Part shown: one piece after another, positions 37,896 to 63,555 of the stretch
Layout: each line of letters opens with the position of its first letter
How positions within the stretch are numbered: position 1 is the first letter of the stretch
From: a virus
Taxonomy: Duplodnaviria; Heunggongvirae; Uroviricota; Caudoviricetes
Length of the DNA stretch: 64,000 bases
Reading direction: 5' to 3' (one strand)
Virus record (IMG/VR): IMGVR_UViG_3300028486_000080
Location: 16,199-80,198 of that record
Program-made: the position numbers and the translations under genes
The notes under the pieces: generated by a model
The model's database searches: none
The model's input: the letters and a program-made list of their open reading frames with translations, nothing else
Told to the model about the DNA's origin: nothing

Positions 37896-37921
37896 CGGCA
37901 GGCTCTCATCTTCCAATCGAA

Positions 37922-46260: not shown

Positions 46261-46293
46261 TTCATTCTTTGTTTACACCTTGAGGCGCATAGT
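46261..46293 (+). promoter_or_regulatory. cassette promoter: degenerate CtrA box plus CACCTTGAGGCG-CATAGT
   Basis: TTCA-N7-TTTA; near-identical to 47163 and 48686. Confidence 0.6.
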
Positions 46294-46364
46294 CATGGGA
46301 TAGCAGGCAAGCACACAGACACAGAGCTTAGCCCTTCCCCCTGCTACCCATAGGAGTCGAACCA

Positions 46365-46511
46365 ATGGAAAAGTTTACTGGCGAGATCGATGGAAAAGCT
46401 CTTGCGCTTTTCATCCAGACAAAGCGACTTGAGCGTGCGCGCCTAGACGCCAAGGCTGACGAAAAGCGCGCCCTAATCCTTGCTTATCTCCGTCACGCAA
46501 CCAAACAGTAA
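46365..46511 (+). CDS. small hypothetical protein (48 aa)
   Basis: AGGAGTCGAA leader; manual translation MEKFTGEIDG... Confidence 0.55.
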   Translation: MEKFTGEIDGKALALFIQTKRLERARLDAKADEKRALILAYLRHATKQ

Positions 46512-46524
46512 GGATATTCACACT

Positions 46525-47019
46525 ATGGCAAACGATATTGTTATATATCGGTCACCTGTCAGGGTAGCTATGGGCATCCTAATTACTGAGGGTAAAGCCG
46601 CCCTCAGTAAGGGCGCCTCTGTGGCGATAGCCTTAGGGTGCGGGCTTACCATTGGCGCCCTTTCTACGGTCGCCTATGTGCGCACCCTAGAGGTGCCTCC
46701 CCAGATCATCGAAAAAACGATTACGAAAATTCGCTTCGAGAACATTTGCAAACCTGAGAATCTGGGGCTGCCGATTAAGGTGGTTATGCCGGAAACGAAT
46801 CCGAACGTTTCTTGGAACGGCAGTTATGTGGCGCCGCTTTCCAGCGATCCAAAGATTGCACGGGAACAAATCGCCGCGGAATCACGTCGCGCCGTCGCTA
46901 CTATCAGGGCAAGAGTCGATACGCTCAAAATCGAAGCTTCGAGCGCTGATAAGCGATTCGATACCATTATGAAAAATTCCGTTGCGCCGAAGGAGTCGCC
47001 AGACGGAAAAAAACAGTAG
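46525..47019 (+). CDS. membrane-anchored hypothetical protein
   Basis: AAGGA RBS, TM helix, followed by a hairpin at 47031-47056. Confidence 0.6.
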   Translation: MANDIVIYRSPVRVAMGILITEGKAALSKGASVAIALGCGLTIGALSTVAYVRTLEVPPQIIEKTITKIRFENICKPENLGLPIKVVMPETNPNVSWNGSYVAPLSSDPKIAREQIAAESRRAVATIRARVDTLKIEASSADKRFDTIMKNSVAPKESPDGKKQ

Positions 47020-47162
47020 GCGGCGCCAAGCGGCGGGACTCTGTATCCCGCCGCGACGCGTCGCAAGAATCCGGTGTCGATTACTCGATTGATCACCCTT
47101 CGGGGCATAGGACTCAAAAAACTGGCGGCAAGCCAAAAATAAATGTGCACGCCTTCTAGATC

Positions 47163-47195
47163 GTAACCTTTTGTTAAGACCTTGGGGCGCATATT
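47163..47195 (+). promoter_or_regulatory. cassette promoter GTAA-N7-TTAA-N12-CATATT
   Basis: Read directly. Confidence 0.6.
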
Positions 47196-47229
47196 GGACT
47201 GGTCAGAGACACAAACCACGGAGTCGAAA

Positions 47230-47418
47230 ATGTCTAGCCGCTACACACAAGCCGCACTTGAGCGCCGCGCCCTTCGCCGCAACGCTGATGCCCGCAAGCT
47301 TTCGCCGCGCGGTGTCAAGTTCGCCAACTACGACTCGAAGTCGATTAGTGAGGCGCGCGAAATCAGCGACAAGCTGATGAGCGATTGGCGTTGGCTCAAT
47401 TCGAGCGGGACGCACTAA
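47230..47418 (+). CDS. small basic hypothetical protein
   Basis: GGAGTCGAAA leader; followed by hairpin GGCGCCTC-GCAA-GAGGCGCC. Confidence 0.6.
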   Translation: MSSRYTQAALERRALRRNADARKLSPRGVKFANYDSKSISEAREISDKLMSDWRWLNSSGTH

Positions 47419-47468
47419 AACGGAGGCGCCTCGCAAGAGGCGCCCTTTCCCCCCTAGGAGTCGAGACA

Positions 47469-47732
47469 ATGAGCTTCATGCAGCCCGAAATCGTCAAAGG
47501 CGACTGGTACCTTGTAGACGGAACGCAAGGAATCGAGTCTTTTCCCGCAGATATGTTTGGACCGGAGGAAGCGGCGGCAGCATACAGCGGCGACGTTTGG
47601 AGCGTCGAATTCACCCATGGATATGGTGCGCGCTTTTCAGCGCCGGGTTACATGGATTGCACGGATTGGACCGTCTACGCTACGCTAGAAGAGGCGCAAG
47701 CGGCGCTCAATGAGGAGTCGGACGATGCTTAA
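47469..47732 (+). CDS. hypothetical phage protein
   Basis: AGGAGTCGAG leader; GYGARFSAPGYMDCTDW pattern. Confidence 0.7.
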   Translation: MSFMQPEIVKGDWYLVDGTQGIESFPADMFGPEEAAAAYSGDVWSVEFTHGYGARFSAPGYMDCTDWTVYATLEEAQAALNEESDDA

Positions 47733-47982
47733 GGCTGAGACTTTCGAGGCGCCAACGCATTGGGCGCCTGCGTTGATAAATGGCGATTGGTCGGGCTTGG
47801 ATAGCGCCGAAACGCATGAATTGCTGGCGTGGATCGATGCCAACAAAGATATTGGCTCGATTGTGAGCGTGGACTCCGAATCGGAGCGCTTCACCTGGAA
47901 TTATCGAATTTATAACCCTTTTGCACCGGAAGGCGTGCGCGGGGGTTCGGTTTGTGAGTATACTGCGCTTGTTGAGGCATAA
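47725..47982 (+). CDS. hypothetical phage protein
   Basis: PTHWAPALINGDWSGL pattern. Confidence 0.65.
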   Translation: MLKAETFEAPTHWAPALINGDWSGLDSAETHELLAWIDANKDIGSIVSVDSESERFTWNYRIYNPFAPEGVRGGSVCEYTALVEA

Positions 47983-48006
47983 GCCTCTAAATCAGGAGTC
48001 GAGAAC

Positions 48007-48468
48007 ATGGCACGAGTAAACGAGACGGCAGCAGGCAAGGCAATTGGCGCATGGGTGATTATGCGCGGCGCAAAGCACATCGCCACGGTGCGCGCCCACT
48101 ACGGCAACGCGGTGACTGTGGACGTGATCCAATACGGCAAGGCGCTGGAGCGCTCGCAAAAGACGGGCGACAAGCTCAAGCGCAAAGTTGAGGATCGGCA
48201 GACGGGACGCGCTGGCGGTTACGGCTATGACAAGTTTGCGGCGGCGCTTGCCGGGCTGATTATCGACGGTCACCAGATGAATGACCATTGCGGCAAGCAA
48301 CTCAAGCCGCCGCATGGCGCAAAGCGTTTTCCTCAGGACTACAAACCGCCGCGCGGCTATCACCTCAACAATTGGGACCGCGAGAACGGCGGTTATATGT
48401 CGTGCTATCGCTCCACCGGCTTGCGGTATCTCGAAGAAATCGGTTACAGCGTGATCCAGGCGATTTAA
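48007..48468 (+). CDS. hypothetical phage protein
   Basis: AGGAGTCGAG leader; GRAGGYGYDKFAAAL pattern. Confidence 0.7.
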   Translation: MARVNETAAGKAIGAWVIMRGAKHIATVRAHYGNAVTVDVIQYGKALERSQKTGDKLKRKVEDRQTGRAGGYGYDKFAAALAGLIIDGHQMNDHCGKQLKPPHGAKRFPQDYKPPRGYHLNNWDRENGGYMSCYRSTGLRYLEEIGYSVIQAI

Positions 48469-48505
48469 CGGATTAGTAACCAAGAGTCGAGAAATCGGCT
48501 CTTGG

Positions 48506-48630
48506 TTAATTTTCGATGGCGATTTGTTAACCTTAAAAATTAGGGTTAACGCCAGATTCACAGAAATTAACGACCGTTAACGTTAACGCGCGCTTAACGC
48601 GGCGCTGTCTCAAAATGGGACAGTTGTTAA
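48506..48630. promoter_or_regulatory. cluster of 9 TTAA half-sites including canonical TTAA-CGCGCGC-TTAAC (48583-48598)
   Basis: Counted in sequence. Confidence 0.65.
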
Positions 48631-48685
48631 CCCGAAATTTACCATGATCCAAGTTGGCGATTTTTTCGCTTGGCGGCGATTTTTG

Positions 48686-48718
48686 TTTACCTCTCGTTAA
48701 GACCTTGAGGCGCATAGT
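48686..48718 (+). promoter_or_regulatory. cassette promoter TTTA-N7-TTAA-GACCTTGAGGCG-CATAGT
   Basis: Read directly. Confidence 0.65.
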
Positions 48719-48756
48719 CAGCACATCGAAACGCCAACACCCAGGAGTCGAACCCA

Positions 48757-48947
48757 TGCAAAAGCGCCATTTTGAAGCCGTAGCAAAGGCAATCAAAGCC
48801 TGCAACATCAGCGAAAACGCTCGTTGCAGTGTTGTGCTCGCTCTGGCGAACGAGTTTGCCGAGCACAACGAAAAATTTCAGGAAATCAGATTCATGCTGG
48901 CATGTGGTTGCTCGCATGATGACGTTGCGCTGATGTTGCGCGCCTAA
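48757..48947 (+). CDS. small hypothetical protein
   Basis: AGGAGTCGAA leader; MQKRHFEAVA pattern. Confidence 0.65.
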
Positions 48948-48968
48948 TCGAGAACGAGGAGTCGAGCC

Positions 48969-50225
48969 ATGACAGCGGCAGGTTACATAATCGGCGGCAT
49001 GTTCCTAATCGGCGCTGTGATCCACGTCGATAAGCTGCAAACCAAGCTCGACTCCTCTATGTGCATGACGCGCGCATGCCTTGAGCTTGTCAGCGTCGAA
49101 AAGTCAGTAAGAGAACGCAACGCGGCAAAAGCCGCTCAAATAGAGGTGATGCATGCACTCGAACGCTAAAGAGATCGTGACCATTGTCGAGACAACGAAA
49201 ATCGAGTCCGCAGAAGACTTGGCGGCATACTTTGCCCGCGGCGGAGTCGTGCACAAATGCGCGATTGGCGAGCGCTCGATTGCCCCAGGTGAGGCGCCCG
49301 TGCTCGATGAGGAATTCGATACGGAATGAAAATCTGGCACGTGATAATTGCGGGGGTGCTTTTGTGCGCCCTCGCTGGATTCTCGACTCACAACTGGCGC
49401 CGCAACATCTGCGACGTTGATTGCAGAGTCCAATTCGAGGAGTCGCTTAGGTGATAGTCACCTCTAAGCACGTGCGCCCTAATCCGTACAGGGCGCGCGA
49501 ATTCGTCGGCTTTGATGCGTCGGGCAACGTCTGGCGCATCTATCACAATGAGCGGCGCCGCTCGCATGCCGAGACGTGGCGAGTCGAGAAAATAATGGGC
49601 GGCACGTCGTTTTGTTCACGCAATCTTAGCGAAATCAGCGATAGGCTAGCCAATACCGCATAACCGAGGAGTCGAACATGCTTGACCTAATCGCCAACTG
49701 GCAAGATTCGCCCATGCTGCTAGCCGGGGCAATGCTCTTTTCTTTTTGGGTGACCGCTTCTGTGGTCCGCTAAATAGGAGTCGAACAATGAAGCCTGGAA
49801 CAAGAATCGAAGTCGTCTCGCCGCGTCTGCATTGCGCCGGGCAATTCGGAATCATCGTCGCCGCGTGCTCTAGTCATGCCGACGTGCTGCTTGACGATGG
49901 CGGCACCCTCAACGGGATTCACGTCTCGCACCTCAGGGAAAGCGATTATTTCGCTTGGTAGTAGTTTGTTAAGACGTGCCGGGATATTCTCGGCACGTCA
50001 ACACATGAGGAGTCGAACATGTCTAAGCTAGTTCAAGTTTTTGGCGACTACGGATATGACAGCGAGCAACTATTGCTCGGTGAAACGTCCCTTGAAGATG
50101 CCGAGCGCTTTATCAAGCGCTACACCCGCGGGGGTGACTTCGGAGGCTATAGCGTCATTGAGGCAATATCGTTTGCCGATGATGGCGAGGCAATCGTGCG
50201 CTTCAAAGTCTCGATTGACGACTAA
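48969..50225 (+). CDS. run of seven tiny genes: 48969-49169, 49153-49329, 49326-49454, 49451-49663, 49678-49773, 49788-49961, 50019-50225
   Basis: Coupled ORFs, most preceded by GGAGTCG(A); three have hydrophobic helices. Confidence 0.55.
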
Positions 50226-50282
50226 CAGGTAAGGTGCCCGGTGTAACAGCCGGGCATCATTGTGGCTTGTTTTTTGGTATGG

Positions 50283-50534
50283 TTAATTTCGCTACGTGAT
50301 TCTGTTAACCTTAATGTGAACACCTATCAGCGTTAACCTTAATCGTTAACCTTAACGTGAACACCTATCAGCGTTAACCTTAATTCTTAACCTTAATAGT
50401 CAGCTTTGTTAACCTTAATTCTTAACGTTAATGCGCGATTCATGGTAAATCTGGCGTTAACGTTAATTGTTAACCTTAACGGCTGTTAACCTTAACGATT
50501 ATGGTTAACGTAGTATGGTTAACGAGCCGTTAAC
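50283..50534. repeat. dense TTAAC array: 24 TTAA, 8x TTAACCTTAA, one exact 28-bp direct repeat, one canonical CtrA box at 50519-50534
   Basis: Counted in sequence; non-coding. Confidence 0.9.
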
Positions 50535-50555
50535 CTAAATGAAAATTAGTGTTAG

Positions 50556-50675
50556 GAAAACCTCACGAGCCCAAAGCCAGATCGCGATTCGAAAAGCTCG
50601 CGAGCCCATGGGTGCTCCCGAGTGTGAAAAAGCTCACGAGCCCATGGACAGATTCGATTCTGGAAAAGCCTCAGG
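50556..50675. repeat. iteron-like repeats GAAAA(G/C)CTC(A/G)CGAGCCCA at 35-nt period
   Basis: Copies at 50556, 50591, 50626 and a degenerate copy at 50663. Confidence 0.75.
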
Positions 50676-51164
50676 TGGTCGATTATGCTTGCGTAGATTG
50701 TCGATGGCTGGAATCACTCTCAGGTTCCACGGTACGTGAAGCCCACACCGATCTTTACCTTGCAACGGCTCGATATGGTCAACATGGTGAGCGACACCCG
50801 TCTCTTGTTCCTTGACTCTCGCCTCCAGATACTTGGCGGCAATCTCGTCCACCATGGCGTCGTTCTCAGAGCACCATACAGGAAAAGCGTTAATAAATCG
50901 TGCACGCTTCTTAGCGTTGCGCGCTCGTGATCGCCCGATATTTTTTCGGTAGTAATCTCTGTTGTTGTCCCGGCGTCTCTCTCGATGCGTGAGGGCATAA
51001 AGGCGCCCGCGCGCTAGGTAGCGCTCTCGATTTTTCTTCTGCCACGCCTTGGTGCGTTCATTGCGGCATGGCTTGCATTCCCCGGCGAGTCCGTCACGGT
51101 ATCGCGGGTCTTTGCAGTAGTCTGTTAACTCTTTTTCCTCTGAGCACTTCGAACAGCGTTTCAT
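50634..51164 (-). CDS. HNH endonuclease with N-terminal Zn-finger
   Basis: KRCSKC...ECKPC; HHVDHIEPLQG..CGLHVPWNLRVI...NLRKHN; own promoter TTGACA-N17-TACACT at 51171-51199. Confidence 0.9.
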   Translation of the reverse strand: MKRCSKCSEEKELTDYCKDPRYRDGLAGECKPCRNERTKAWQKKNRERYLARGRLYALTHRERRRDNNRDYYRKNIGRSRARNAKKRARFINAFPVWCSENDAMVDEIAAKYLEARVKEQETGVAHHVDHIEPLQGKDRCGLHVPWNLRVIPAIDNLRKHNRPPEAFPESNLSMGS

Positions 51165-51298
51165 GAACGCAGTGTATCAATATTAACCTTAAATGTCAAC
51201 TGTGATATATTTGTTGTGATAATATTGTCACAGATGCTCGTTGACTTAAAAGTCAATTTAAGATTCGGACAACCTCCCCCTTAGTTAAAATTTCTGGC

Positions 51299-51384
51299 GG
51301 GTCCACATACCCCCCTAGGAAAAAATCCGGCAATGGGTCCACCCGCCCTATCTCTAATTTTGGGGAAGGGTCCACCCGCCCTAT
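51299..51384. repeat. three GGGTCCAC repeats, two extended to GGGTCCACCCGCCCTAT
   Basis: Copies at 51299, 51335, 51368. Confidence 0.7.
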
Positions 51385-51394
51385 TCTCAAATAG

Positions 51395-51628
51395 TTAACG
51401 GCTCCCCTCGATCTTTTCCATGAGTGCCCTCAGCATCGCTTCATAGGGGAAGTTGCCCACCTTTTCCACCCGGCGAAAAGTGCTAAGGCTCATACCCAGC
51501 GCCTCAGCGGCAGCCGGTTGACTCAAATTGAGGCGGGTCCGCCAATCCTTAACATCGATACCGAGGGTCGATGCGAATTGGGGCACCAGATCGCCATAGT
51601 CGCCCGTACGGGTCACATCGTTGGTCAT
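51395..51628 (-). CDS. XRE-family HTH regulator
   Basis: VKDWRTRLNLSQPAAAEALGMSLSTFRRVE. Confidence 0.75.
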   Translation of the reverse strand: MTNDVTRTGDYGDLVPQFASTLGIDVKDWRTRLNLSQPAAAEALGMSLSTFRRVEKVGNFPYEAMLRALMEKIEGSR

Positions 51629-51631
51629 GGA

Positions 51632-51784
51632 GTCAAAACTGTTCAAATTGGACAGGGGGGTAGTCAAATTGACTGTAGTCAATTTGAAGGGGTAGTCAAA
51701 TTGGATACCCCTCAAAACTGTTCAAATTGAACAGTTTTGCGCCTGTTAACGTTAATCTTTAAGCCTAATGTGTTCAAATTGACT
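51632..51784. promoter_or_regulatory. six TCAA(A/T)TTG pseudo-palindromes upstream of the XRE gene, putative operators
   Basis: Includes AAAACTGTTCAA-A-TTGAACAGTTTT at about 51715-51739. Confidence 0.6.
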
Positions 51785-52283
51785 ACCCCCCGACGCTCGA
51801 CGGGCGATTTGTGACCATTTTCGGGGCGTTTGTGTCCACTGAATGGTCACACGACTTCCGAGGGGTGTAGGGCGGCAAAAACCCAGCATTTCTCGGCTCT
51901 TGATGGCTTCTTTACCTTACTATTCTTACTTAATATAACTATATGATTAATGTAACCAGTTTTGGGAAGTCCTTAGCCCATTGCAAACGAATCTTAAGCA
52001 TAAAAGTTAACGTTAACGTTCGTGCTGTTTGCGCCCATCCGTGCTCCAGTGTGCTGCTGTAGCCCGTGATATGCCTTTTGAGGAGTCACAATAGACCTGT
52101 AGTTTCTTTCGACGTAAGCCTTTGATATCGCCCAATGTTTTTGTGCCCATTTTTCGGGGGCAATGGACACACTCCCGACACAAGAGTATTGCAATTAACG
52201 ATAATATCCTGTAGTATCTCAGAGTCGAAAGGCGTGAAACGCCCAACGATCAACGATCAACCCTCAACTCTCAGGACACCACC

Positions 52284-52766: not shown

Positions 52767-54113
52767 GGATTTTCCCGCCGCCGCGCGTTGTATTCTTGAA
52801 TGCGTGCGAGCCCGAACAGTCGCCGCATTTCATCCACCGGCAGACCACGGCGCCGCGCCCCACCACGCACGGCTGAATCCTCGATAACAGTCTCTAGCCA
52901 ATCGGTCACCGGCTTGAGGCGTTCCGCTTTGTTGCTCATGCGCAGTAAGCTATGGGCATCCCGTAACAGCGAAATATTAGGCACCGGCAGCGCGGGCAAC
53001 GGCTCCAATTGCTTGACGCGTCCGCGTTTAGGTTTCACCGATTCGGACATTACCGCTTACCCTTGTTCCTCGACATTCATAATTCCAGGTCCAGGTTTGT
53101 GCGTGGCGTGCGTCACCATGGCGTAGTCAGCAGGCGAGAACATGACGACGACTTGCGCGCCCTTTATCGCGTTATCCATAACGTAATGCATCGCGGGCAT
53201 CATGTCCTCGAAAGGACCGACGATGCCCTGCATATTCGGCAGCACCACCACATACTGAGTAACCATTACGCCTCCACTTCACCCTCTTGGCGGCGCTTGA
53301 TCACCGCGGGCGCTAGCGGGTCCAGCGGACTATCGCTAGCCTCGATTGCGCGCTCCCGCAGCGTAGCCTCCAGCCCCTCAGGAGTCTTTGCCTTAGGAAA
53401 CGTGCTCGGCAGTCCAGGCACACACGTTATGCCCCATTTCTTTGCGAGGCTCCCACCGATCTTGCGCATGGCTTCAGCCTTGCCACGCAAGTCGGCAGCC
53501 ACGAGCTTGGTGCCCATGCTTGCCATGTCGTCGGCTTGCTCGTCGTAGAGTCCCGCCTTAGTAGCGATAAGCGATACCGTCATGTCCTGCGCCGCGCGCA
53601 TGACTTCACGTTTTGACATTGAGTGCTCCCTTAATCATTCGTTGGCGCAACAGCTTCACCGGCACGCCCGCGTTCCTTGCAGCATCCCTTATAAACTTCT
53701 CGGACGCCATAGCCTCCAGCCAATCAGCAACATAGTTAGCGTCCGCCACTACCATGTCGCCTTCTGGCGATCCGTCAGTTTCATAAGCCCGCAACCATTC
53801 GGCAGCAAAGCGCAGCGCATCAGGGGGCGGTTGCTTAGGTATGCTCATATTCTGCCTCCATACGGTCCAAGTATGCCTTGTCTGCCGCCTCTTCGGCGCG
53901 AAGCTCTTCATCGGTCGGATACCGAGGAACCCAACCGTCCAGCCACGCGCACGGGCGGTTAGCCGACAGAACACGATTCTGCGGCAGCGGCAGCCTCAAC
54001 AGAAGCTCCGTCGCCACAGTGTGATAGTAGTCACTCCAGGCGCCCATACCAGCCTTGCGCGCCTCTTTAGAGGCTTCAAGATAGGCATCTTCGGGGGTGT
54101 ATTCGGTGCACAT
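52763..54113 (-). CDS. operon of five hypothetical genes: 53835-54113, 53606-53848, 53266-53619, 53057-53266, 52763-53050
   Basis: Coupled ORFs behind the cassette promoter at 54160; 52763 and 53606 look paralogous. Confidence 0.6.
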
Positions 54114-54159
54114 AGGTTCGACTCCTATAATGGCGCGCATTGCGCCGAACTCTCAGGAA

Positions 54160-54190
54160 CCCTAGCACCAAAGTCTTAAGAAACCGTTAA
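54160..54190 (-). promoter_or_regulatory. CtrA-box promoter TTAA-CGGTTTC-TTAA-N7-GTGCTAGGG
   Basis: Read directly. Confidence 0.75.
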
Positions 54191-55398
54191 GGTACCAATA
54201 TAATCGGACCAACGATCTTCAGGCACACACAATTGTCGATCCACACCGGGCGCCCTTCGATCAGCAAATCCCACGCACTCTTGTGAAGCGTTAATGTTAA
54301 CTGTTTCTCTAGATCAGCGACGGTCGTATCCCAGGTCTCTTCAACGTCGAAATTGTGCCGTGAGTATCTGTTAACCCTAATAGGGATTGAACCCTCACCT
54401 ACGGTCATTTTTCCAGTTTCCTCAACAGTCGGGCGCGCGGCGGACCACTTCAGTTTCTTTCATCGATCCTCTCTCCACAGAAAGCGCACCGCCCGCGCAC
54501 AACGATGCACACGTGGTCCGTCAATACATATGACCGATAGAGGGTCATCGGTTGTCAAAATCCTTTTGATACACGAGCTTTTTACAGTGCTCACAATAGA
54601 TTGTCACCGTGCCGTAAGCACCGCCACCATGCCCACACGTCGGGCAACCTTCAGAGCTTGACGCCTCGACTTCTATCATCGTTTCGGTCCAGGGCTTTGC
54701 ACAGAAGACACACAGCGGCGGCTTCACCCACCCGTTTGGATTGTCGCTCAATAGTAGTGCCTCCGAGAATCATCCACACGCACGATCTCACCATCAGCGG
54801 TGTAGTCGATGCCACACTTGGCGCCGCTCAGGCTATTGGTCATGTCCTGCGGCGTCAAATAGCGAAATCCCTTGTAGGCTTCGCGGTCCATCAGCGCCGT
54901 CTCGATCAGCGACGCCACGCCCCGGCGCGCGTCCTCATCGCGATCAGCCGAGTGCAGGATGTAGCTATTCGCCCAATTGCGCAGCTTCTCAAGCTCCACA
55001 GTCTTGCGTGCCTTAGCCATGACGTGCCCTCCGTTGCTCAAGATAGCCGACGATCATCTTGTTGCGCTTAGCCAGAGCCTCGCACATGAAACGCTGATAG
55101 GTGCGCGCGTTCCCCAGCCACCACGGGTCCAGCGGTCCCGTTGCAGCCTCGTTCGCTTTGCGTGCCCAGAGCGCTGCCATGCGCTTGGCGTGAAGACTTG
55201 CTTTTGCTCGCGTCATTCGAGCACCATCCAGCCAATCACGGGGGACACGTTCAGGCGCGCAACAAGCGCCTCGTATTCATCCGCCGTGATATGGTTGCCA
55301 AGCTCACGAGACTTGTTCATGGCTCCCTCAAGCGCAACGCGAATCATGTTGGTCTCGACAAGGCTGAAATTCTGGTAAGGCGCGCGATAGATTTGCAT
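54187..55398 (-). CDS. operon of small hypothetical genes: 55213-55398, 55013-55216, 54748-55020, 54545-54751 (CxxC Zn-binding), 54187-54408
   Basis: Coupled ORFs; the first has the GGAGTCGAAC leader. Confidence 0.55.
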
Positions 55399-55432
55399 GT
55401 TCGACTCCTTTGTGTTCTCTCGACTTCAAGCA

Positions 55433-55463
55433 CCCTAGCACGAATGTACTAACGAACCGTTAA
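55433..55463 (-). promoter_or_regulatory. CtrA-box promoter TTAA-CGGTTCG-TTAG-N7-GTGCTAGGG
   Basis: Read directly. Confidence 0.75.
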
Positions 55464-55874: not shown

Positions 55875-55947
55875 AGACACCAATGGGATTCGAACCCATG
55901 TTTGCTCCGCGAAGGGTGCCGTCCTGTTCCCGTTAGACGATAGTGGC
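55875..55947 (-). tRNA. degenerate tRNA-Glu-like element (6-nt anticodon loop, no CCA)
   Basis: GCCACTA-TC-GTCTAACGGGAACAGGAC-G-GCACC-CTTCGC-GGAGC-AAAC-ATGGG-TTCGAAT-CCCAT-TGGTGTC-T; D and T arms follow bacterial tRNA-Glu; one mismatch in each of the acceptor and anticodon stems. Confidence 0.65.
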
Positions 55948-56006
55948 TGGCATCACCGCACGGTACCTTGCGGCGTCCCGAGCCGATCAAGCTCAGGCAC
56001 GAACAA

Positions 56007-56036
56007 CCTAGCACTGAGATATTAAAAAAGCGTTAC
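56007..56036 (-). promoter_or_regulatory. CtrA-box promoter GTAA-CGCTTTT-TTAA-N7-GTGCTAGG upstream of the tRNA-like element
   Basis: Read directly. Confidence 0.65.
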
Positions 56037-56154: not shown

Positions 56155-59139
56155 CTAGGCGGCTTGATCCTTATTGTCTTCATTCCGACGCACCAGATAC
56201 ACCTCAGGTATGTAATCGCCGCCGTCATGTTCCCAGCGCCGCCAAATGATCTCAGACACACGCCAGCGCCCGGTGCGGGGCACCTTGACTTTTCCGCGGT
56301 CGAAGTCCCGCGTGTTGAAATATTCAACATCGGTCGGAACAATCCACAAGATATCCTCACGGCGCGGCAGCGCGGGGAAGTCACGCACCAGCGAAAACCC
56401 ATCTACCATCAGTAGACAGCGCAACTTACTCATCACCCTTCCTCATGATGATATACCAGCCACCGCGCGACAGCGAATAATCTATGTCCCTATGACACCA
56501 CCACCCTTCATCCTTCATCTTGTTGCGCTCGATTGCAAGCGCACGGATGCAATGCTGCGACCAATCCCCATCGAACGGCACGCACGGAATGACGATCACC
56601 TCTTGGTGCGCATACGCTCGGATACCGTCCAGCCAGCGATTGATGCGTGCCCACATGATCAGGAGTCCCTATATCTGCTCGGCAGCGGCACATCGCGAAA
56701 GGCAAAGAAACCAAGCCAGAGTCCACCCAACACAATTGCACCAATCGAGGCGAAGAACCCGACGACACCCGTCAAGATCACCAGCGCCGTATTCGAATAC
56801 GTTTGGGGCAATTGGGTATTCCAGTATAGGGCAATACCCCCAACCACAAACAGGTACACCGTCAAGTAGCCGTGCACCCGGCGTCTTGCCGTGCGCTCAA
56901 GCTCCGCACTCTCGTATGGAGTCAGGTCCGATCTCATTCCAGGTAAAGCTCCGCTAGATCAGCCGTGCCCGACACAAAGACTATGCCCGACGCATTCTGC
57001 ACCTCGACAACGCGGCACAGTTGCGTCACTAGATGATCACCTCCGTTGTCAGGATGATGCGCGTTGACCACCATGACGATAGCGTCGGGCGGATACTTGG
57101 ATAGAGCCTCAATCAGTTGCTTGACGTTCATTCCGCATCCTTGTCAGGTATTGGGCATATGCGCCAAGCAATTGTTGCGTGGCTTCATCCTCGTTTGTCG
57201 CGATCTCACCGAGGCGATACGCCATAGCTGCCAGCGCCGTGTTGCTCAGCAGATAAGTCATTGCCACCGAGCGCATCATTTGATTGATGGCTTCGCTCAG
57301 CAGCGCTTCATCACTACCATTTGTAGCAGTGCGGATTTGGTCCATGTCCAGCATTATGCGTCATCCATTGGTATGAAGTTGACCTTAGGCTTCGAGCGTC
57401 CAGGTAGCTTGTTGATCAGCGGCACATTCCAAATCTCAGCGATGCGCGTAGCCTCACGTAACGCCCAATCATATTCGGTCGTACGATACACCCATCCTGC
57501 GACGCCTTGCTCATTGATCCGGCATGCGAAGTAGGCGAACCCATCTTGGGGTTGCCAGGACTCCGTAACGATCACACGGGGACCATGATCCGGCAGCGGC
57601 GCGGTCTCAGCAGTAAGGCGTTCGGCGCGAGTCATTGCTTGCCACCGAATATCCGTGGCACTCACAAAGCTCTTGTGCGTCTCATGCTCCAGCCACGCGA
57701 CGATAGCCTCATGCCAACGCTTGTTAGGCTCCGAATACATTGGGCGGCACACGTCAGAGCCGTGCACGCGCTCGCAGATGAAAGGCGTGCCGTCGATAGA
57801 CGCACAGAGCTTTTTGCCCGGCGCGATCTCCAGCAACCACATAGGGAACGCTTGATTGTATTCGTCACCGTAGTTGATGCGCATCAGTCGTATAGTCTCC
57901 ACAGTAACGCATCGCGCCTTAACGGCAGCATTTCAACATGCTCGGGGCACCGTGGTCCCAGCGCGCTACATTCGAGCATGGCTCCCATGACTGAAATAGT
58001 CACCAGCGCATACGCCAGGAGCGCTACCGTTAACCCTACTGCGAGCATGCGCTTCAGGATCATTCCGGCACACTCCGATACGCCTTGACGCACGTCGTGT
58101 AAATCGTAGGCTTTGACATTTCCGCTTGCTGGTCAATTGCTTTTGCCGCAGAAAGGCACTCTTCGCCACTCGGATAATCGATCACCAGAGGTGCCGTCCA
58201 CGCCTTGGCGAACATAATTAATGCCCAGACGATTTTTGTGCCAGCGATAATCATGCATCCTCCCTAACAGACGGCGACGGATTCTTGTAGAGTTGAATCT
58301 TGATACGGTTAATGGCTTGCCGGGCGTCCTCTCGCATGCCGCGCGCGATCATTTCCTGCACATCGCTCAGCATCGATGCCACAGTATTGGTTACCGTGCC
58401 GTTGAAATCCAACAGCCGGGAAAACTCTCGATCACACTCCGCTTCCGAGCATCCAAGGCACTCACGCGCCCGCGCTTCATCCTTAAAGAAATTTTTATCC
58501 AAGCTCCGTTGCCTCCATAATTGCGGCATCAGACAATTCCATCGCTTGATACTTGTCGATCACAGCGAGCCGCGCGGTGCGCTCATTATACATTTCAGCG
58601 CGCGGGCGCCCCACCAGACCTAACAGCACAAGGCACGCGAAGTAGGACAGCCGGTGAATAGCTGCATAGGTGCGCGGGTCATAGGTCATGGGTAGCCCTC
58701 GGCGCATCAGGATCATCGCCCCAGACAAGTGCAGGATCGATGCCAGTCTCAGCGAGCACGCGCTTGATATCGTCGCGCAATGCCTTGGCGAGGCGGACGT
58801 TGCCGCACTTGCGAGCGAGTTTGTAGTCGCAAACCCATGCACGTAGTCCGACAATATGTCCCTTGAGGGTTACACCGCTCATGGCTTGCGCTCGACAACC
58901 AAGTGCAGCTTAGCGCGCGACGGCGAAAGGCGACCGTGCGCGCCGTGAATTACGCGCAAAGAGTCGCGACCAGCCCACGACGCCCGGCGCTTGGCAGCAG
59001 CCTCCGCAATGATAGCTGCAACCTCAGCCAGAAAAGCCTCACGGCGCTCCGGTATCTGCGACCAGTGCGTTGGCGGCTCAGCGAGCTTGTTGCTGCACAC
59101 AATGCGCGCGGTAGCTACAGGGGGGAAAATGTCCAGCAT
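56155..59139 (-). CDS. operon of about 12 small hypothetical genes: 58879-59139, 58679-58882, 58495-58689, 58251-58529, 58060-58254, 57884-58093, 57354-57902, 57109-57354, 56934-57131, 56659-56937, 56426-56656, 56155-56436
   Basis: Tightly coupled ORFs, several with TM helices; no function recognised. Confidence 0.55.
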
Positions 59140-59172
59140 GTTTCGACTCCATGTTTCCTCGACTTTGGACAG

Positions 59173-59202
59173 CCTACCACAGAGGTACTAACAACCCGTT
59201 AA
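59173..59202 (-). promoter_or_regulatory. CtrA-box promoter TTAA-CGGGTTG-TTAG-N7-GTGGTAGG
   Basis: Read directly. Confidence 0.65.
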
Positions 59203-60363
59203 CGCGCCCTCAGCCTTGCGAGCATTAACCTTACTTATATACCGCAACCGGGAAATGGCGTCCCGAATGTCAGCGCGGATAAACGACTTCTCACGGTCGG
59301 ATAAATCCCACCGATTGCGATCAGCCATGCCGTCGCGAATAGTCATGCGCAGCAATAGCACTTGCCGATCAACCGTCACGGCGAGCCCCCGGCGTCTTGC
59401 CATTATGCAACACCTCGTCATGCGTCTTGATGTGGCGAAGCTTTTCCACTAGCCGCTCAGCAGCGCCAATAGTCAGTGCGTCGGCGTTGCCAGCTTCCAG
59501 GTCCGCCATGATAATGCGCACCTCACGCGTGGCGTATTCGTAAAGATTTGCTTCGCGTTTATCCGACAGAAGCGCAGCGTCGAATTTCATTCAACAACCT
59601 CCATCGTTATCCGCACCCGGCGCCCTATGTAAGGTCGCACATCCTGATGTAGATGAAAGTCCACATCCCACGACTGCACCCGAAAGAATAACTGACTATC
59701 GGGCACCTCAAGCTCACCAACCATAGCCATGCCACCGTCTTCAGTGTCCATAGCCAGAACGCCTTCAGCCACCACCTTAGGCATCGGGGAACTTCTCTTT
59801 GATCCACGCGACCACGTGCTTGGCGGTCTCAGCGTCAAGCGTCACCATCGTGCGCTTGGAGTGCACCGCTTTATCACCGCGCGATATCTCTTCAACATCA
59901 AACATCAGATACGGGTTGCCGGTATGCGTAGCGAGGCGCAAGATAGCCGAGCCCGTGCCGTAACGCTTCCATGACGGTTTGTGCTCGCGGGTCACATACT
60001 CGATCTCTGAGTAGTGCTCACCCTCCGTATTCCCGTCATCCCGGATGAAGTGGCAGCCGTGATCTTTGAAAATTTCCCTTTTCATGATCATACCAACTGT
60101 TGAAGAGCGTGCGCCGCGCAAGCGCCGCGGATGTAAGACTGCAACGCCGCGTCGCTATCGAACACGAGGGGCATTTCCAGGTCATGCCCCGTCACATGAT
60201 AGAAGGCGCCCGATGAATCGACTTTGACGTGCACGTGGCGATAAGCACCAGTGCCCATGTTCTCGTATGCCTCGACCAGGGAACCGGTAGGCATGCCGCC
60301 ATAGGTAAGGCGCGGAAATTCCGACTTTGCGTCGTCGAAAGGCTCTGAAGGCTCGCGGTACAT
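59188..60363 (-). CDS. operon of five small hypothetical genes: 60088-60363, 59777-60091, 59587-59784, 59369-59590, 59188-59421
   Basis: Coupled ORFs; GGAGTCGAAATG leader at 60363. Confidence 0.55.
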
Positions 60364-60576
60364 TTCGACTCCTTGATGTGGTGGAACGAGTGAGTCTTGA
60401 CCTCACACTGACGGCACGGTCGGGCGCGGTATGATCCTCCCCTTAGGTGCCGTTGCTCTGCCAATATTAAGCTACCGTCCCTTAACCATTGAAATCTATT
60501 GTGACGGGCGCTCTTATTCAGCGGTCGGGAAGCTCCGTCCCTTAGGCCGTTTGGGTCTCGCCCGTCACTTCACACA

Positions 60577-60607
60577 ACCTAGCACACAGAAGTTAACAAA
60601 CCGTTAA
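60577..60607 (-). promoter_or_regulatory. CtrA-box promoter TTAA-CGGTTTG-TTAA-N7-GTGCTAGG
   Basis: Read directly. Confidence 0.75.
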
Positions 60608-60612
60608 CGCGC

Positions 60613-60828
60613 TCAGATTTTGCACATTCTTTGAAGGCGCTCGATAACTGCGGGAGTCCTATACCGGCGCGACGTGCGACGGCGCGATCCCTCGAACCAC
60701 AATTGAAGCGTGCCGTCCCGCATACGGAACAAATTGAACTGAGAATTAGTGCTCGTGACAAAGACAGCCGCAGCGCGATAACCGTCTCCAGGCTTGCCCT
60801 TAGTCGTCAGCACATGCGTCAGTTGCAT
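60613..60828 (-). CDS. small hypothetical protein
   Basis: GGAG RBS before MQLTHVL. Confidence 0.5.
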   Translation of the reverse strand: MQLTHVLTTKGKPGDGYRAAAVFVTSTNSQFNLFRMRDGTLQLWFEGSRRRTSRRYRTPAVIERLQRMCKI

Positions 60829-60830
60829 CG

Positions 60831-61442
60831 CTACACAGTCTCCACTTTCTTGAGCCCGTTGGGTCCGAAGTCCGTGCGCAGCCCGGCGCGCACTTCCTTT
60901 GCCATGCGCACCCATCCGAGCGCACCGAGCAACGTCTGCGAGCGTCCGCCGTGCATGCCGTCATGCCACGACTGCCAACCGGCAACCGAATACTGGCGGT
61001 CAGGCTCGTGATAGATCACGTGAGTCAGCCCATCCGTGCCGATCAAATCCATCGGCATGTAGTCATCAGCACCAGGGGGGCGGAAGTATGACGTGACGCG
61101 CAATCCGAGCGAGTCCACCACCTCACTGATGTAGGCGGGAGTCGGGTCAACCTTGGTGCCAGCGGGGACACACATGTAGTAATCCAGCGAGTCCACAAAC
61201 TCACTGCCGAAAATGAATCGCAACGCCTCTCGCGTCGCGGGGATGCGCTCAGACTGGTGCGGACTGTAACCGCCAATCAGCGAGTCAACCACCGTGCTCG
61301 CTTCGATATACTTGATGCGTCCAGCGACGTTGATGCAGGCGCCGCGATTGTAGGTGCCGCGCACCTGAATGCGACCGATCTCCTGCCCCGCGCGATTGAC
61401 GATGATATGCGTCGGCTTTTTGATCAGATAAGGATTGGGCAT
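60831..61442 (-). CDS. hypothetical protein
   Basis: AGGAGTCGAACATG leader. Confidence 0.65.
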   Translation of the reverse strand: MPNPYLIKKPTHIIVNRAGQEIGRIQVRGTYNRGACINVAGRIKYIEASTVVDSLIGGYSPHQSERIPATREALRFIFGSEFVDSLDYYMCVPAGTKVDPTPAYISEVVDSLGLRVTSYFRPPGADDYMPMDLIGTDGLTHVIYHEPDRQYSVAGWQSWHDGMHGGRSQTLLGALGWVRMAKEVRAGLRTDFGPNGLKKVETV

Positions 61443-61472
61443 GTTCGACTCCTTTTGTTCTCGACTACGCAC

Positions 61473-61504
61473 ACCCTAGCACGCATGTCTTAACAAACAG
61501 TTAC
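61473..61504 (-). promoter_or_regulatory. CtrA-box promoter GTAA-CTGTTTG-TTAA-N7-GTGCTAGGG
   Basis: Read directly; back-to-back with the plus-strand TTGACA-N17-TAGTGT promoter at 61515-61543. Confidence 0.7.
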
Positions 61505-61579
61505 TACAGGGGACTTGACAACGGTAAGATTAACAAGTAGTGTCCGAGGCTCACCCCTATTAACGTTAAGGAAACCCTC

Positions 61580-61819
61580 ATGGCTACCAAAAAGAAAGCA
61601 CCAACTCGCAAAAGCCCGGCAAAGCGTGCCACGTTCAAGCCGCTCGCTATCCAGGTCAACACCACTACACAGATCGAAGCGGCAGAGGGCGCCGACTTCC
61701 GCGCGGCGGCAGGCGCCGTGCTTACCGATCTCCAGCGGCGCCTCAGCAAGGGCGAACTCACGGGTCTTGAGGTAAAGGCTTATGGGATGAACGGTAACCG
61801 CATCCTTGCGGAGCTTTAA
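61580..61819 (+). CDS. small protein with basic N-terminal tail (MATKKKAPTRKSPAKR)
   Basis: Own sigma70 promoter; AAGGA RBS; bidirectional hairpin at 61861-61892. Confidence 0.65.
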   Translation: MATKKKAPTRKSPAKRATFKPLAIQVNTTTQIEAAEGADFRAAAGAVLTDLQRRLSKGELTGLEVKAYGMNGNRILAEL

Positions 61820-61939
61820 CCCTAACGCGTAATTAACCCTAGAGTGGTTAACAAAAAGTAAAAGGGCGCCTCATATCGAGGCGCCCCTTTCTTGATGTCG
61901 AATCTTATATCAGATCGACGTTTTGATGCCGATTCTATA

Positions 61940-62923
61940 TCAAGCCGCCTGAAGCAGCTTGACCGCCTTAGCCTTCATCACGGCGCCCGATCCAAATTGA
62001 GCGGATGCGAGGCGGGCATCGTCCGCCGTCTCACCATCAGCGGTGCGGCGTGCCGTGCGGTCATGATCGACGTAGCGCGTCACGGCGTTAAGCGCCGTCC
62101 AAGCGTTGTAGGTCTCAGTGCCGCGCTCAGTGAGAGTCGTATCGAGTGAGCCGGTGATACGATCCACTACAGCCTTGCCACGTCCGGTGACTTCCTTACC
62201 CTCTTGCCCGATGTCAACAACCTTTTTCAGGAAGTTGATAGTTTCGTCGCGCGTCATCTTGATATTGCGCAGCGACTCCGCAAACTCGCGGTAGCCGTCG
62301 AAGTCCGCCGCGATCTTTGCCATAGCGGCAAGCGCCTTGTCCTGCGCCACCAGATCGAAAGCGGCGTTGTGCTTGATCGATACCACGCCCTGCTCAAAGG
62401 CGGCGCCCTGAAGCGTGTTGCGGCACTCGACGCGCGTTCCTACAGCACCGCCGCGCGTTGCCAGCGTGCCGTCGAATGACGTAGCGAGTAGGGCATAAAG
62501 CTTGTGCTTCGAACCGGCGATATCGGACTCTTCACCGCCGTTGAACGCGGCTAGCGCCCAGATCACGCGACCACCCTTGATGGCGCCCATCGTTTCCATG
62601 ACGAAACGCGGGTCCGACAGGATGAAGTTGTGGAAGAACTCGCGAATCTGCGCGGGCTGTACCGGGATATAGTCGTCAGTGAAGAGCCCTAGGCGAGCGT
62701 TGTTGTCGTCGCGCACGATGGCGACAGAGTTGTGAAGTTGGATCATGTTGTTGCCGCGCTGAATAAACAGCGGGCACTTGGAAACGGTGAAATCGGTCTT
62801 CGACGCCTTAGCCCACTCATCCAGCGAGGAGTCGGCGGTCACACTCGTATTTTCGCGGCGATGCCACGAGGGGGCGGCAGTGTCGCGGCGTGCCATCGAG
62901 TCAGCTACGTTATCCCAAGCCAT
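61940..62923 (-). CDS. DUF932 family phage/plasmid-like protein (TIGR03299-like)
   Basis: SWHRR..DFTV..LGLFTDDYIPVQ..ETMGAIKGGRVIWALA..LLATSFDGT..RVECRNTL..IKH..AWTALNAVTRYVDH. Confidence 0.8.
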   Translation of the reverse strand: MAWDNVADSMARRDTAAPSWHRRENTSVTADSSLDEWAKASKTDFTVSKCPLFIQRGNNMIQLHNSVAIVRDDNNARLGLFTDDYIPVQPAQIREFFHNFILSDPRFVMETMGAIKGGRVIWALAAFNGGEESDIAGSKHKLYALLATSFDGTLATRGGAVGTRVECRNTLQGAAFEQGVVSIKHNAAFDLVAQDKALAAMAKIAADFDGYREFAESLRNIKMTRDETINFLKKVVDIGQEGKEVTGRGKAVVDRITGSLDTTLTERGTETYNAWTALNAVTRYVDHDRTARRTADGETADDARLASAQFGSGAVMKAKAVKLLQAA

Positions 62924-62961
62924 TTGTCTGCATGCTCCTATGTTGCTCTTGAATGATTGAA

Positions 62962-62992
62962 CCTTACAGCGAATGTCTTAACAAACCGTTAA
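62962..62992 (-). promoter_or_regulatory. CtrA-box promoter TTAA-CGGTTTG-TTAA-N9-TGTAAGGT
   Basis: Read directly; a further canonical TTAA-N7-TTAAC at 63050-63065. Confidence 0.7.
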
Positions 62993-63166
62993 AAAGGAAG
63001 CTTGTCCATCCCCATTTGTTATCTTTGGGCATGGATTGTAGGCTCATGGTTAATTTTCGGTTAACGCGGGTTAGATACAATTAAGGTTAAGAAGCTCTAA
63101 CTGCTTCCCCGCATTTATCCCCGCAAAATGAAGGCATAATTAAGGTAAACGGTAGCCGCCGCAAGA

Positions 63167-63194
63167 AAAAGCAGGGGAGTCGAAGCCCTGCTTT
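63167..63194 (-). terminator. intrinsic terminator
   Basis: AAAGCAGGG-CTTCGACTC-CCCTGCTTT plus T tract. Confidence 0.6.
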
Positions 63195-63223
63195 CTCTGC
63201 GCGCTGCCTGATATACAGGCGCG

Positions 63224-63493
63224 CTAGTTGGCGAGCGTAACGGAAGCTGAAGTAAACCAATCGCTATCCGGCGCCTCAGGATCACCAGACGGTCCAGGCA
63301 CCCATAACTGGTCATCCTCTCCCCCGTCTCCCTGAAGCACCAGCGAGGTATGAAGCTCGTTGAGCCAGTTGGCGACCACCGTCAGCTTAGTGCCAACCGG
63401 CACGTCACCATGTGCGCCGTTGCTTATCGGTTGAGTGACGATCACCGTGTCACCCTCTTTAAGCGTCTCGGCAAGGTCCATCCAAGTTGACAT
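63224..63493 (-). CDS. hypothetical protein
   Basis: GGAGTCGAAC leader. Confidence 0.6.
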   Translation of the reverse strand: MSTWMDLAETLKEGDTVIVTQPISNGAHGDVPVGTKLTVVANWLNELHTSLVLQGDGGEDDQLWVPGPSGDPEAPDSDWFTSASVTLAN

Positions 63494-63523
63494 TCGTTCG
63501 ACTCCGTTGTTTCCAGTTTCAAC

Positions 63524-63555
63524 ACCCTAGCACAAAGGTACTAACAAACTGTTAA
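63524..63555 (-). promoter_or_regulatory. CtrA-box promoter TTAA-CAGTTTG-TTAG-N7-GTGCTAGGG
   Basis: Read directly. Confidence 0.7.

Follow-up and report, generated by a model that had tools for sequence, protein, structure and literature searches.

A reiterated 32-nt module in the window (the whole 64,000-nt stretch of phage DNA analysed here) carries a CtrA box where the -35 element of a promoter would be expected. On balance, we think that these cassettes are probably promoters of the housekeeping RNA polymerase, predicted to lack a -35 element and to depend on a CtrA-type winged-helix protein at the box. What was established directly is the motif with its geometry and selective conservation, together with the presence of genes for CtrA-type and SciP proteins; it is from these that we infer binding, activation, the acting protein and timing. 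The phage is uncultured, has a genome of 165 kb and presumably infects an alphaproteobacterium; its sequence occurs in sludge metagenome DNA runs, kept as contigs.

The minus-class module is made of a TTAAC-N5-GTTAA box (equivalent to TTAA-N7-TTAA), a 7-nt spacer and an extended -10 element, nTGnTAnnnT. The eight minus-strand copies listed in the preliminary description were all recovered as 32-nt modules, and eight others were found beyond the right end of the window (genome positions 80780-88659), making 16 in 18 kb. The copies in the window are as follows (window coordinates):

54159..54190, minus strand, box promoter 1: TTAACGGTTTCTTAA, 7 nt, GTGCTAGGGT; upstream of a 92-aa ORFan (53835-54113), with an orthologous promoter in the relative
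55432..55463, minus strand, box promoter 2: upstream of a 61-aa ORF (55213-55398)
56005..56036, minus strand, box promoter 3: GTAAC variant, followed after ~60 nt by a tRNA-like gene (55875-55947)
59171..59202, minus strand, box promoter 4: upstream of an 86-aa ORF (58879-59139)
60576..60607, minus strand, box promoter 5: followed by a structured leader of ~200 nt; next ORF at 60088-60363
61473..61504, minus strand, box promoter 6: GTAAC variant, upstream of a 203-aa ORFan (60831-61442)
62961..62992, minus strand, box promoter 7: -10 block GCTGTAAGGT, upstream of a DUF932 gene (61940-62923)
63524..63555, minus strand, box promoter 8: upstream of an 89-aa ORF (63224-63493)

The box half-sites of all 16 minus-class copies fit (T/G)TAA-N7-TTA(A/G). 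Neither the N7 inside the box nor the 7 nt separating it from the -10 block varies in any copy (16/16 here and 15/15 in a related phage), in agreement with the exact spacing noticed previously. Taking TAGGGT as the -10 hexamer (-12 to -7), the canonical box would lie at -38 to -24 with its 5' base at -38, which supports the earlier placement of the CtrA box in the -35 position. The -35 slot itself reads ACGGTT and TTGACA is absent. Across the 31 copies of the two phages, the information content was 21 bits for the box, 12 bits for nTGnTAnnnT and about zero for the flanks. Cassette orientation always agrees with the downstream gene, in 13 of the 16 cassettes a predicted start codon follows within 140 nt, and the box-to-ATG distance is 47-50 nt in 9/16 minus-class copies, with the region-specific Shine-Dalgarno sequence GGAGTCGAAC in front of the ATG. 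Promoter, leader (~25 nt) and Shine-Dalgarno sequence together form a cassette of ~80 nt, found once per one to three genes. The GGTTTG spacer and the leader are also conserved, beyond what a CtrA site requires; the copies therefore share descent as a cassette, and their number within the genome is not independent evidence.

Counts against expectation showed a strong local excess. Exact TTAA-N7-TTAA was observed 6 times in the window (0.37 expected) and TTAR-N8-TGNTANNNT 10 times (0.43 expected), seven of the latter being minus-class copies; all six exact occurrences of GTGCTAGG in the window belong to the box-promoter family. A PWM made from the copies scored them at 32-57 bits, the best score in 20 shuffled genomes being 12.8. 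Genome-wide, the 12 exact TTAA-N7-TTAA sites are confined to a 26-kb stretch from 64.8 to 91.1 kb, which makes up 16% of the 165-kb genome, confirming that the box class is limited to one genome region. The reported lack of TTGACA promoters there also held, as an ordinary sigma-70 promoter scan of 45.5-64 kb was at chance (15 observed versus 12.9 expected).

A second set of copies is found on the plus strand, where GTTAAGACCTTGAGGCGCATAGT occurs in three near-identical versions at 46271, 47173 and 48696 (0-2 mismatches). Their upstream half-sites are degenerate (TTCAT, GTAAC and TTTAC):

46261..46293, plus strand, plus-class promoter a: degenerate box TTCATTCTTTGTTTA, then CACCTTGAGGCG, then CATAGT
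47163..47195, plus strand, plus-class promoter b: GTAACCTTTTGTTAA, then GACCTTGGGGCG, then CATATT; 57 nt upstream of an ATG with the Shine-Dalgarno sequence GGAGTCGAAA
48686..48718, plus strand, plus-class promoter c: TTTACCTCTCGTTAA, then GACCTTGAGGCG, then CATAGT
49958..49990, plus strand, weak copy: single half-site (GTTAAGACG...GATATT)

Three of the four plus-strand copies put forward in the preliminary description are thus real, and the fourth is the single half-site. Its total of about 12 promoters is correct for the window but too low for the family, which amounts to roughly 20 copies (16-20) when the plus strand and the 8 copies to the right of the window are included.

The existence of two promoter classes is supported by the sequence. 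TTGAC-N17-19-TAAGGT was observed six times against 0.07 expected, all within 26.8-38.0 kb, and additional TTGACA-N17 sites are present at 19019 and 20415, so that the left part of the window is of the TTGACA-N17 type, as had been proposed. The TTGAC-class promoters of the replication module have TTAA words, that is CtrA half-sites, over their -10. The six sites are:

26815-26844, 33674-33703, 34481-34509, 35098-35126 and 37925-37953, minus strand: TTGAC-N17-19-TAAGGT
36348-36377, plus strand: TTGAC-N17-19-TAAGGT

The cassette family is carried by only one related genome (168 kb), which has 15 box-promoter copies in 21 kb; a more distant relative, L058, has degenerate GTAAC variants only. Proteins of the two cassette phages are 44-74% identical. 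At nine orthologous promoters, the two half-sites are 89% and 92% identical and the -10 block 74%; the flanks are 31% and 33% identical. The gene content flanked by the cassettes varies between the two phages.

The phage also encodes proteins related to the host regulators CtrA and SciP, which the preliminary description had not weighed:

27261..27650, minus strand, ctrA-C: 129-aa receiver-less CtrA DNA-binding domain, candidate reader of the box
3729..3995, minus strand, SciP homologue 1 (DUF1153)
genome 86763-87065, outside the window, SciP homologue 2: directly behind a box promoter

ctrA-C scored 163.8 bits against the NCBIfam CtrA model (next-best family 67 bits) and shares 64-65% identity with cellular CtrA along its full length, or 67-75% when the DNA-binding part is aligned locally. 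A 30-residue stretch is invariant, T168 and T170 are kept, and ten TTAAC half-sites lie within 95 nt upstream of the gene. A CtrA-type protein, the phage's own ctrA-C, is predicted from its gene to be available in the infected cell. Since the phage carries its own receiver-less CtrA, it appears wired into the host cell-cycle switch or able to imitate it.

We propose that a CtrA-type winged-helix protein bound to the full box, at about -38 to -24, would stand in for the -35 element, the extended -10 (TGnTAnnnT) supplying the contact with sigma. Assuming a host with CtrA and the corresponding life cycle, host CtrA~P would fire the cassettes upon infection of a cell rich in CtrA, such as one of the piliated swarmer type. 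ctrA-C, whose C-terminus is not alanine, could then read the same boxes, and expression would become independent of host phosphorylation and proteolysis. The phage SciP made from a box promoter is a candidate brake, and the sigma-70-type promoters of the replication module with TTAA over the -10 may respond in the opposite sense. The box may accordingly be read by ctrA-C, in a delayed-early/middle mode, instead of or besides host CtrA~P. Gating by host CtrA and early timing, both put forward in the preliminary description, are kept here as proposals.

It is possible, though we hold this only tentatively, that ctrA-C is the dedicated reader, the box cassettes being a delayed-early/middle class as with MotA in T4 and host CtrA being irrelevant or a competitor. 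Expression of ctrA-C from the sigma-70-type replication module would begin as soon as infection starts, and the protein might shut TTGACA...TAAGGTTAAC promoters via the TTAA words over their -10. The gene is located in a block with consensus TTGAC-N17-TAAGGT promoters, for which no activator is needed. Its product lacks the receiver domain and has a recognition helix and preceding loop identical to those of CtrA; it ends in E in both phages, whereas the aligned cellular CtrA sequences end in A. The isolated DNA-binding domain of PhoB is constitutively active and activates pho-box promoters, also without a -35, which by analogy may bear on ctrA-C. Both phages with the cassette family encode ctrA-C, but this co-occurrence amounts to two related genomes only. 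Against a dedicated phage reader, phages of the phiCbK type rely on host CtrA alone at their CtrA boxes, no CtrA-like gene of theirs being present in the phage collection, the strict N7 suits a dimer assembled via receiver domains, and promoter-dense, ORFan-rich blocks are usually immediate-early.

A broader proposal, which we likewise regard as possible rather than probable, is that the phage has rebuilt the CtrA/SciP switch: ctrA-C, a captured domain released from control by phosphorylation and perhaps by proteolysis, would activate the ~20 cassettes in the manner of MotA and repress the promoters with TTAA over the -10, and phage SciP would end cassette expression. Within such a rebuilt switch, ctrA-C could in addition halt replication of the host chromosome at its origin.

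Neither a -35 nor an activator is indispensable to an extended -10 promoter, so that the box could be an operator, a consideration that counts against the favoured reading. The cassettes would in that case be constitutive extended -10 promoters at which CtrA or ctrA-C, bound at -38 to -24, blocks the polymerase; their genes would be off in CtrA-rich cells and released once CtrA is cleared, a lytic deferment by repression. We consider this improbable. All 31 copies in the two phages keep TG at -15/-14, a hallmark of -35-independent promoters, and CtrA represses DELTA_120 of the Brevundimonas phage vB_BsubS-Delta (PMC9437464). However, TAGGGT agrees with the -10 consensus at only 3/6 positions, full sites near -35 in Caulobacter are associated with activation and sites over -10 with repression (PMC4287350), and TTAA over the -10 occurs here in the other promoter class. 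Finally, it is very unlikely that the repeat serves mainly as something other than a CtrA-dependent promoter, be it the site of another phage factor or a recombination cassette with incidental TTAA: the GGTTTG spacer and leader are conserved beyond the needs of a CtrA site and the cassettes border gene content variable between the two phages, but conservation peaks on the TTAA half-sites and TGnTAnnnT rather than on the spacer, orientation matches the downstream gene at a fixed ATG distance, and no other candidate factor was found (the T7-type search being uninformative). Cassettes beside variable genes recall the mobile PeSL cassettes of T4-type phages.

Profiles for MotA and AsiA (PF09114, PF09010) gave no match above cut-off in the genome, and matches to Sigma70 region 2 and region 4 were below cut-off (E 0.03-0.04). 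PF00940, for a T7-type RNA polymerase, had no match either; the same search matched no control genome and is therefore uninformative. Promoters of a phage sigma factor or T7-like polymerase were considered as a candidate and are not supported, no such gene matching above cut-off (the PF00940 search being weak evidence).

Promoters dependent on a CtrA-type protein, as we favour here, have close counterparts in Caulobacter. The 5' base of the full CtrA motif lies near -35 of activated promoters, e.g. at -39 in ctrA P2 (PMC4287350). The CtrA-activated promoters of Caulobacter crescentus (ctrA P2, fliQ, ccrM, pilA site 1 and sciP) likewise lack TTGACA, their -10 is of the housekeeping-sigma type (GCTA...) as here, and sciP sits behind a CtrA promoter, as one phage SciP does behind a box promoter. 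Unlike those of Caulobacter, the promoters described here are phage-borne and belong to a set of 16-20 almost identical cassettes, in which the extended -10 is strict and the leader and Shine-Dalgarno sequence are conserved; their starts and CtrA dependence are predicted.

Phage promoters regulated by host CtrA have already been published, first in 2022 and for few phages: host CtrA binds and activates promoters of phiCbK (gp5, gp18) and Cp1R7A-A1 (gp19) (Mascolo 2022, PMC9437464). Similarly to our phage, the phages of that study (phiCbK, Cp1R7A-A1 and vB_BsubS-Delta) have CtrA boxes skewed within the genome and upstream of small genes without assigned function (PMC9437464). Their boxes are packed in terminal repeats or a 1.3-kb gap, whereas ours extend across 18-26 kb in the form of a single stereotyped module, and the receiver-less CtrA with two SciP copies present here is not described in PMC9437464. 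No nucleotide similarity to these three phages was found.

The T4 middle promoters, with a MotA box at -30, a sigma-70 -10 and sigma appropriation, show a functional likeness only, the box replacing the -35. They too occur in many copies over a phage region, and the reader is possibly phage-encoded here as well. Unlike in T4, no MotA/AsiA homologue is present, the box is the native binding site of the host regulator and the candidate activator is a captured host domain. At PhoB-dependent promoters (OmpR/PhoB family), the tandem pho-box site also replaces the -35, and activation is through a winged-helix domain of the family to which ctrA-C belongs; the DNA motif and the regulon differ. Phage-borne CtrA-type winged helices without a receiver are also found in roseophage RDJL Phi 1 (gp37) and Rhodobacter phages, but these proteins are 38-55% identical to CtrA, compared with 64-65% (75% locally) for ctrA-C. 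No CtrA-box enrichment was found near their "CtrA" genes in the loci examined, whereas ctrA-C co-occurs with a box regulon.

What is new here is that the CtrA-box principle is scaled to a whole regulon from one stereotyped, evolutionarily maintained cassette, and that this regulon is paired both with a second promoter class bearing CtrA half-sites over the -10 and with a phage receiver-less CtrA and SciP. Should ctrA-C be what reads the boxes, we would have a case in nature of a virus making a stolen master regulator its own transcription-timing factor, and with it a ready-made constitutive CtrA variant for studying the contact between CtrA and RNA polymerase. The cassettes offer about 30 aligned natural promoter variants to define the grammar of CtrA-dependent promoters.

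The genes behind the box promoters are nearly all ORFans, plus DUF932, DUF3846, TadG/VWA pilin and SciP genes. The 18-kb cassette block of small ORFans resembles a phage host-takeover region, and the TadG/VWA pilin-like gene of the box regulon is the sole hint at pilus- or flagellum-dependent adsorption.

The box cassettes, each made of a CtrA box at the place of the -35 element, an extended -10, a leader and a Shine-Dalgarno sequence, belong to a phage genome of 165,361 bp with terminal repeats and 53% G+C (IMG/VR record; 'genome' coordinates refer to the whole record). A sequencing-run search found this sequence in two DNA runs only, both from one sludge study. The left part of the window is a replication and nucleotide-metabolism module, followed by two blocks of small genes:

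Window, left 38 kb, minus strand: module with rIIA, family-A DNA polymerase, Dda-like and other helicases, RtcB and a methyltransferase
Window ~38-52.8 kb, plus strand: block of small ORFans
Window 53 kb to past the right end (genome 69.2-88.3 kb), minus strand: about 40 small genes

Every one of the eight minus-strand copies reported in the preliminary description was present where it had placed them. Read 5' to 3', the unit opens with (T/G)TAAC-N5-GTTA(A/G), which amounts to TTAA-N7-TTAA; a spacer of exactly 7 nt, nTG(C/T)TAnnnT and a short leader with GGAGTCGAAC at its end, before the ATG, follow. In nine copies the start codon lies 47-50 nt from the box. The abundance of this family far exceeds what chance would give: the window has 6 exact TTAA-N7-TTAA matches where 0.37 are expected, and 10 of TTAR-N8-TGNTANNNT where 0.43 are expected; PWM scores of the cassette copies are 32-57 bits, and shuffled genomes reach at most 12.8. 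The family of in-window copies initially proposed was too small, since eight more lie past the right edge (genome 80780-88659), giving 16 minus-strand cassettes in 18.3 kb across the window and the stretch to its right. The proposed restriction of the box class to one region was confirmed: all 12 exact TTAA-N7-TTAA sequences fall at genome 64.8-91.1 kb. The plus-strand copies held up only in part. Three near-identical GTTAAGACCTTGAGGCGCATAGT copies were found, with degenerate upstream half-sites, and the fourth carries a single half-site, as had been described; this set is best seen as carrying a half-site form of the cassette design. In several cassettes (window 54187-54190, 59188-59191 and others), the TAA stop of the upstream gene lies within the 5' TTAA half-site, so that the end of one gene overlaps the next promoter.

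Taking TAnnnT as the -10 hexamer (-12 to -7), the TG at -15/-14 makes an extended -10 and the CtrA box occupies -38 to -24, with ACGGTT in the slot expected for the -35 hexamer. An ordinary sigma-70 scan found no excess of conventional promoters at 45.5-64 kb (15 versus 12.9 expected). Genome-wide start-site mapping in Caulobacter showed that, where CtrA activates a promoter, the 5' base of the full CtrA motif falls close to the -35 region; in ctrA P2 it is at -39 (PMC4287350). The phage boxes are alike in their position near -35, and the cassettes therefore share the geometry of CtrA-activated promoters. We consider CtrA-type-dependent promoters the most likely reading of the cassettes. A T7-like promoter, suggested by CTAGGG, was dropped because TGnTAnnnT suits sigma-70 and no T7-type polymerase gene was found in the phage genome, by a search that is itself uninformative, having matched 0 of 14 control genomes.

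A related phage (JGI contig of 167,729 bp, reached via the protein index) encodes a receiver-less CtrA DNA-binding domain and a DUF932 protein, respectively 79% and 66% identical to those of this phage. Its syntenic 21 kb contain 15 cassettes with unchanged spacings. Over the 31 copies, which come from the only two genomes, related to one another, where the family was seen and which share descent within a genome, the box holds 21 bits of information, the -10 block 12 bits and the flanks none. Nine promoters were treated as orthologous, their downstream proteins being 44-74% identical between the two phages.

Identity between the two phages at nine orthologous promoters, by segment
30 nt upstream: 31%
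5' half-site: 89%
N6 spacer: 65%
3' half-site: 92%
7-nt spacer: 57%
-10 block: 74%
20 nt downstream: 33%

More than any other evidence, this segment-wise footprint argues for a function of the half-sites and the -10. Many genes between cassettes are not common to both phages, so the gene set that the cassettes enclose is variable. In a more distant relative (109 kb; DUF932 protein 52% identical), only degenerate GTAAC-N6-TTAG versions occur.

In IMG/VR, neither the cassette pattern nor the DUF932 protein led to a relative, and the DUF932 protein had no match in metagenome_contigs. Of the further viral contigs that carry a CtrA-like gene (L011-L047), most have a full-length cellular-type ctrA or a distant receiver-less gene; none was box-enriched within 10 kb. 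A looser geometry pattern matched 72 IMG/VR contigs once each, with no dense family in the stretches fetched. A stricter pattern gave 46 matches among prokaryotes (one genome per species), 23 explicitly alphaproteobacterial (15 of Rickettsiales type) and 8 from unspecified Proteobacteria. These fit a natural alphaproteobacterial promoter form and carry little weight, the downstream genes being uninformative and the search having no control pattern. Five contigs of the low-GC MAG 'Proteobacteria bacterium Gw_Eff_bin_451' (L072, L080, L087, L098, L099) carry TTAACNNTTTGTTAA-N8-TGCTATATT; in four, the module is followed by a nearly identical sequence of ~50 nt, which looks like a repeated promoter element of a cellular genome. 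Six predicted viral contigs of 38-40 kb in IMG/VR (L019-L023, L026) end within the last ~50 codons of a cellular-type ctrA (82-96% identical); prophages or GTA regions that lie next to ctrA may be their origin.

A CtrA-family domain at the box probably governs the cassettes. The phage genome, searched for each, yielded no receiver domain, GcrA, MotA or AsiA, and only weak matches to sigma-70 regions 2 and 4, under the family cut-off. It does encode a candidate reader, ctrA-C (129 aa, window 27261-27650, minus strand), which scores 163.8 bits on the NCBIfam CtrA model at profile positions 124-224 (next family, 67 bits). It is 64-65% identical over its full length, and up to 75% locally, to cellular CtrA of Hyphomonadaceae or Maricaulales type, with an invariant recognition helix and an invariant stretch of 30 residues. 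Residues T168 and T170 are both kept; in CtrA they direct the protein to one class of promoter or another (bioRxiv 10.1101/739516). Some 24 unrelated residues stand in place of the receiver, and both phage proteins end in E; the aligned cellular sequences end in A, several in AA. For ClpXP to degrade CtrA, both the alanines at its C-terminus and a determinant in the receiver domain are required. As judged from its sequence, ctrA-C should thus be free of control by phosphorylation and probably also escape proteolysis. Ten TTAAC half-sites and a TTGACG, conserved in the related phage, lie within 95 nt upstream of ctrA-C.

On balance, we favour a scheme in which host CtrA~P would read the boxes first and ctrA-C would serve as back-up or sustainer. 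It is rather unlikely that ctrA-C is instead a dedicated activator working in a MotA-like, delayed-early mode. The 'early' label given to the box regulon draws only on gene content and promoter density. A repressor site, at which CtrA would block constitutive extended -10 promoters, is unlikely; in Caulobacter, repression is accompanied by half-sites over the -10 (PMC4287350).

The existence of two promoter classes was borne out, the left module using TTGAC-N17-19-TAAGGT. Six such sites were found in the window against 0.07 expected, all at 26.8-38.0 kb (26815-37953), and similar sites occur elsewhere in the genome. The TAAGGT sits inside the word TTAAGGTTAA, read as TTAACCTTAA on the opposite strand, which places CtrA-type half-sites over the -10/start region of many second-class promoters, the position associated with repression in Caulobacter. 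The two classes may respond oppositely to the same protein. The same half-site words form dense arrays in several non-coding stretches, including the 95 nt upstream of ctrA-C:

Window 50282-50530: TTAAC/GTTAAC array, 30 half-sites in 250 bp
Window 46041-46222 and 48465-48627, genome 88658-88765: other TTAAC/GTTAAC arrays, gene-poor

Spacing in these arrays is mostly other than N7. They might act as a sponge or an origin, or be bound by the phage CtrA domain as a monomer.

The genome also contains two DUF1153/SciP genes:

Window 3729-3995, minus strand: SciP homologue 1 (E 1e-25)
Genome 86763-87065 (L059:6763-7065), minus strand: SciP homologue 2 (E 2e-35)

The box promoter at genome 87120 precedes the second by 54 nt, and a TadG/VWA pilin-like gene (L059:5218-6567) comes after it. 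In Caulobacter, CtrA activates sciP itself, and the SciP protein blocks late-S promoters that CtrA activates. Complex prediction for phage SciP-2 and ctrA-C returned a score of zero, without a verdict, and so speaks neither for nor against binding.

Host-CtrA control of phage promoters has been published (PMC9437464), and receiver-less 'CtrA' genes are already annotated in roseophages. A regulon-scale, stereotyped CtrA-box cassette was not found described in the literature searched, nor was a case in which such a cassette is joined by SciP copies and a near-native receiver-less CtrA, or by a counter-class of promoters.

Other features were noted. The Shine-Dalgarno module GGAGTCG(A/C), which contains a GANTC site, has 31 of its 36 genomic copies at genome 60-90 kb (window ~44-64 kb and beyond), 23 of them having a start codon 2-8 nt after; translational control, or control by an RNase, might act on it in a region-specific way. 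Three further elements were recorded:

Window 55875-55947, minus strand: tRNA-like gene (Rfam tRNA, 35.1 bits; missed by ARAGORN)
Window 60380-60575, minus strand: leader of ~200 nt, after the box promoter at 60576-60607 and before the next ORF
Window ~43798-43855, plus strand: CCCTTAGATAG directly repeated three times with TTTGTTT between the copies, upstream of a 122-aa ORF

The box promoter at 56005-56036 lies ~60 nt upstream of the tRNA-like gene, whose anticodon loop suggests UCG. A long hairpin (GTGACGGGCG...CGCCCGTCAC) is part of the leader, which had no Rfam match and might be a small RNA or have a regulatory role as a leader. The CCCTTAGATAG repeats look like iterons.
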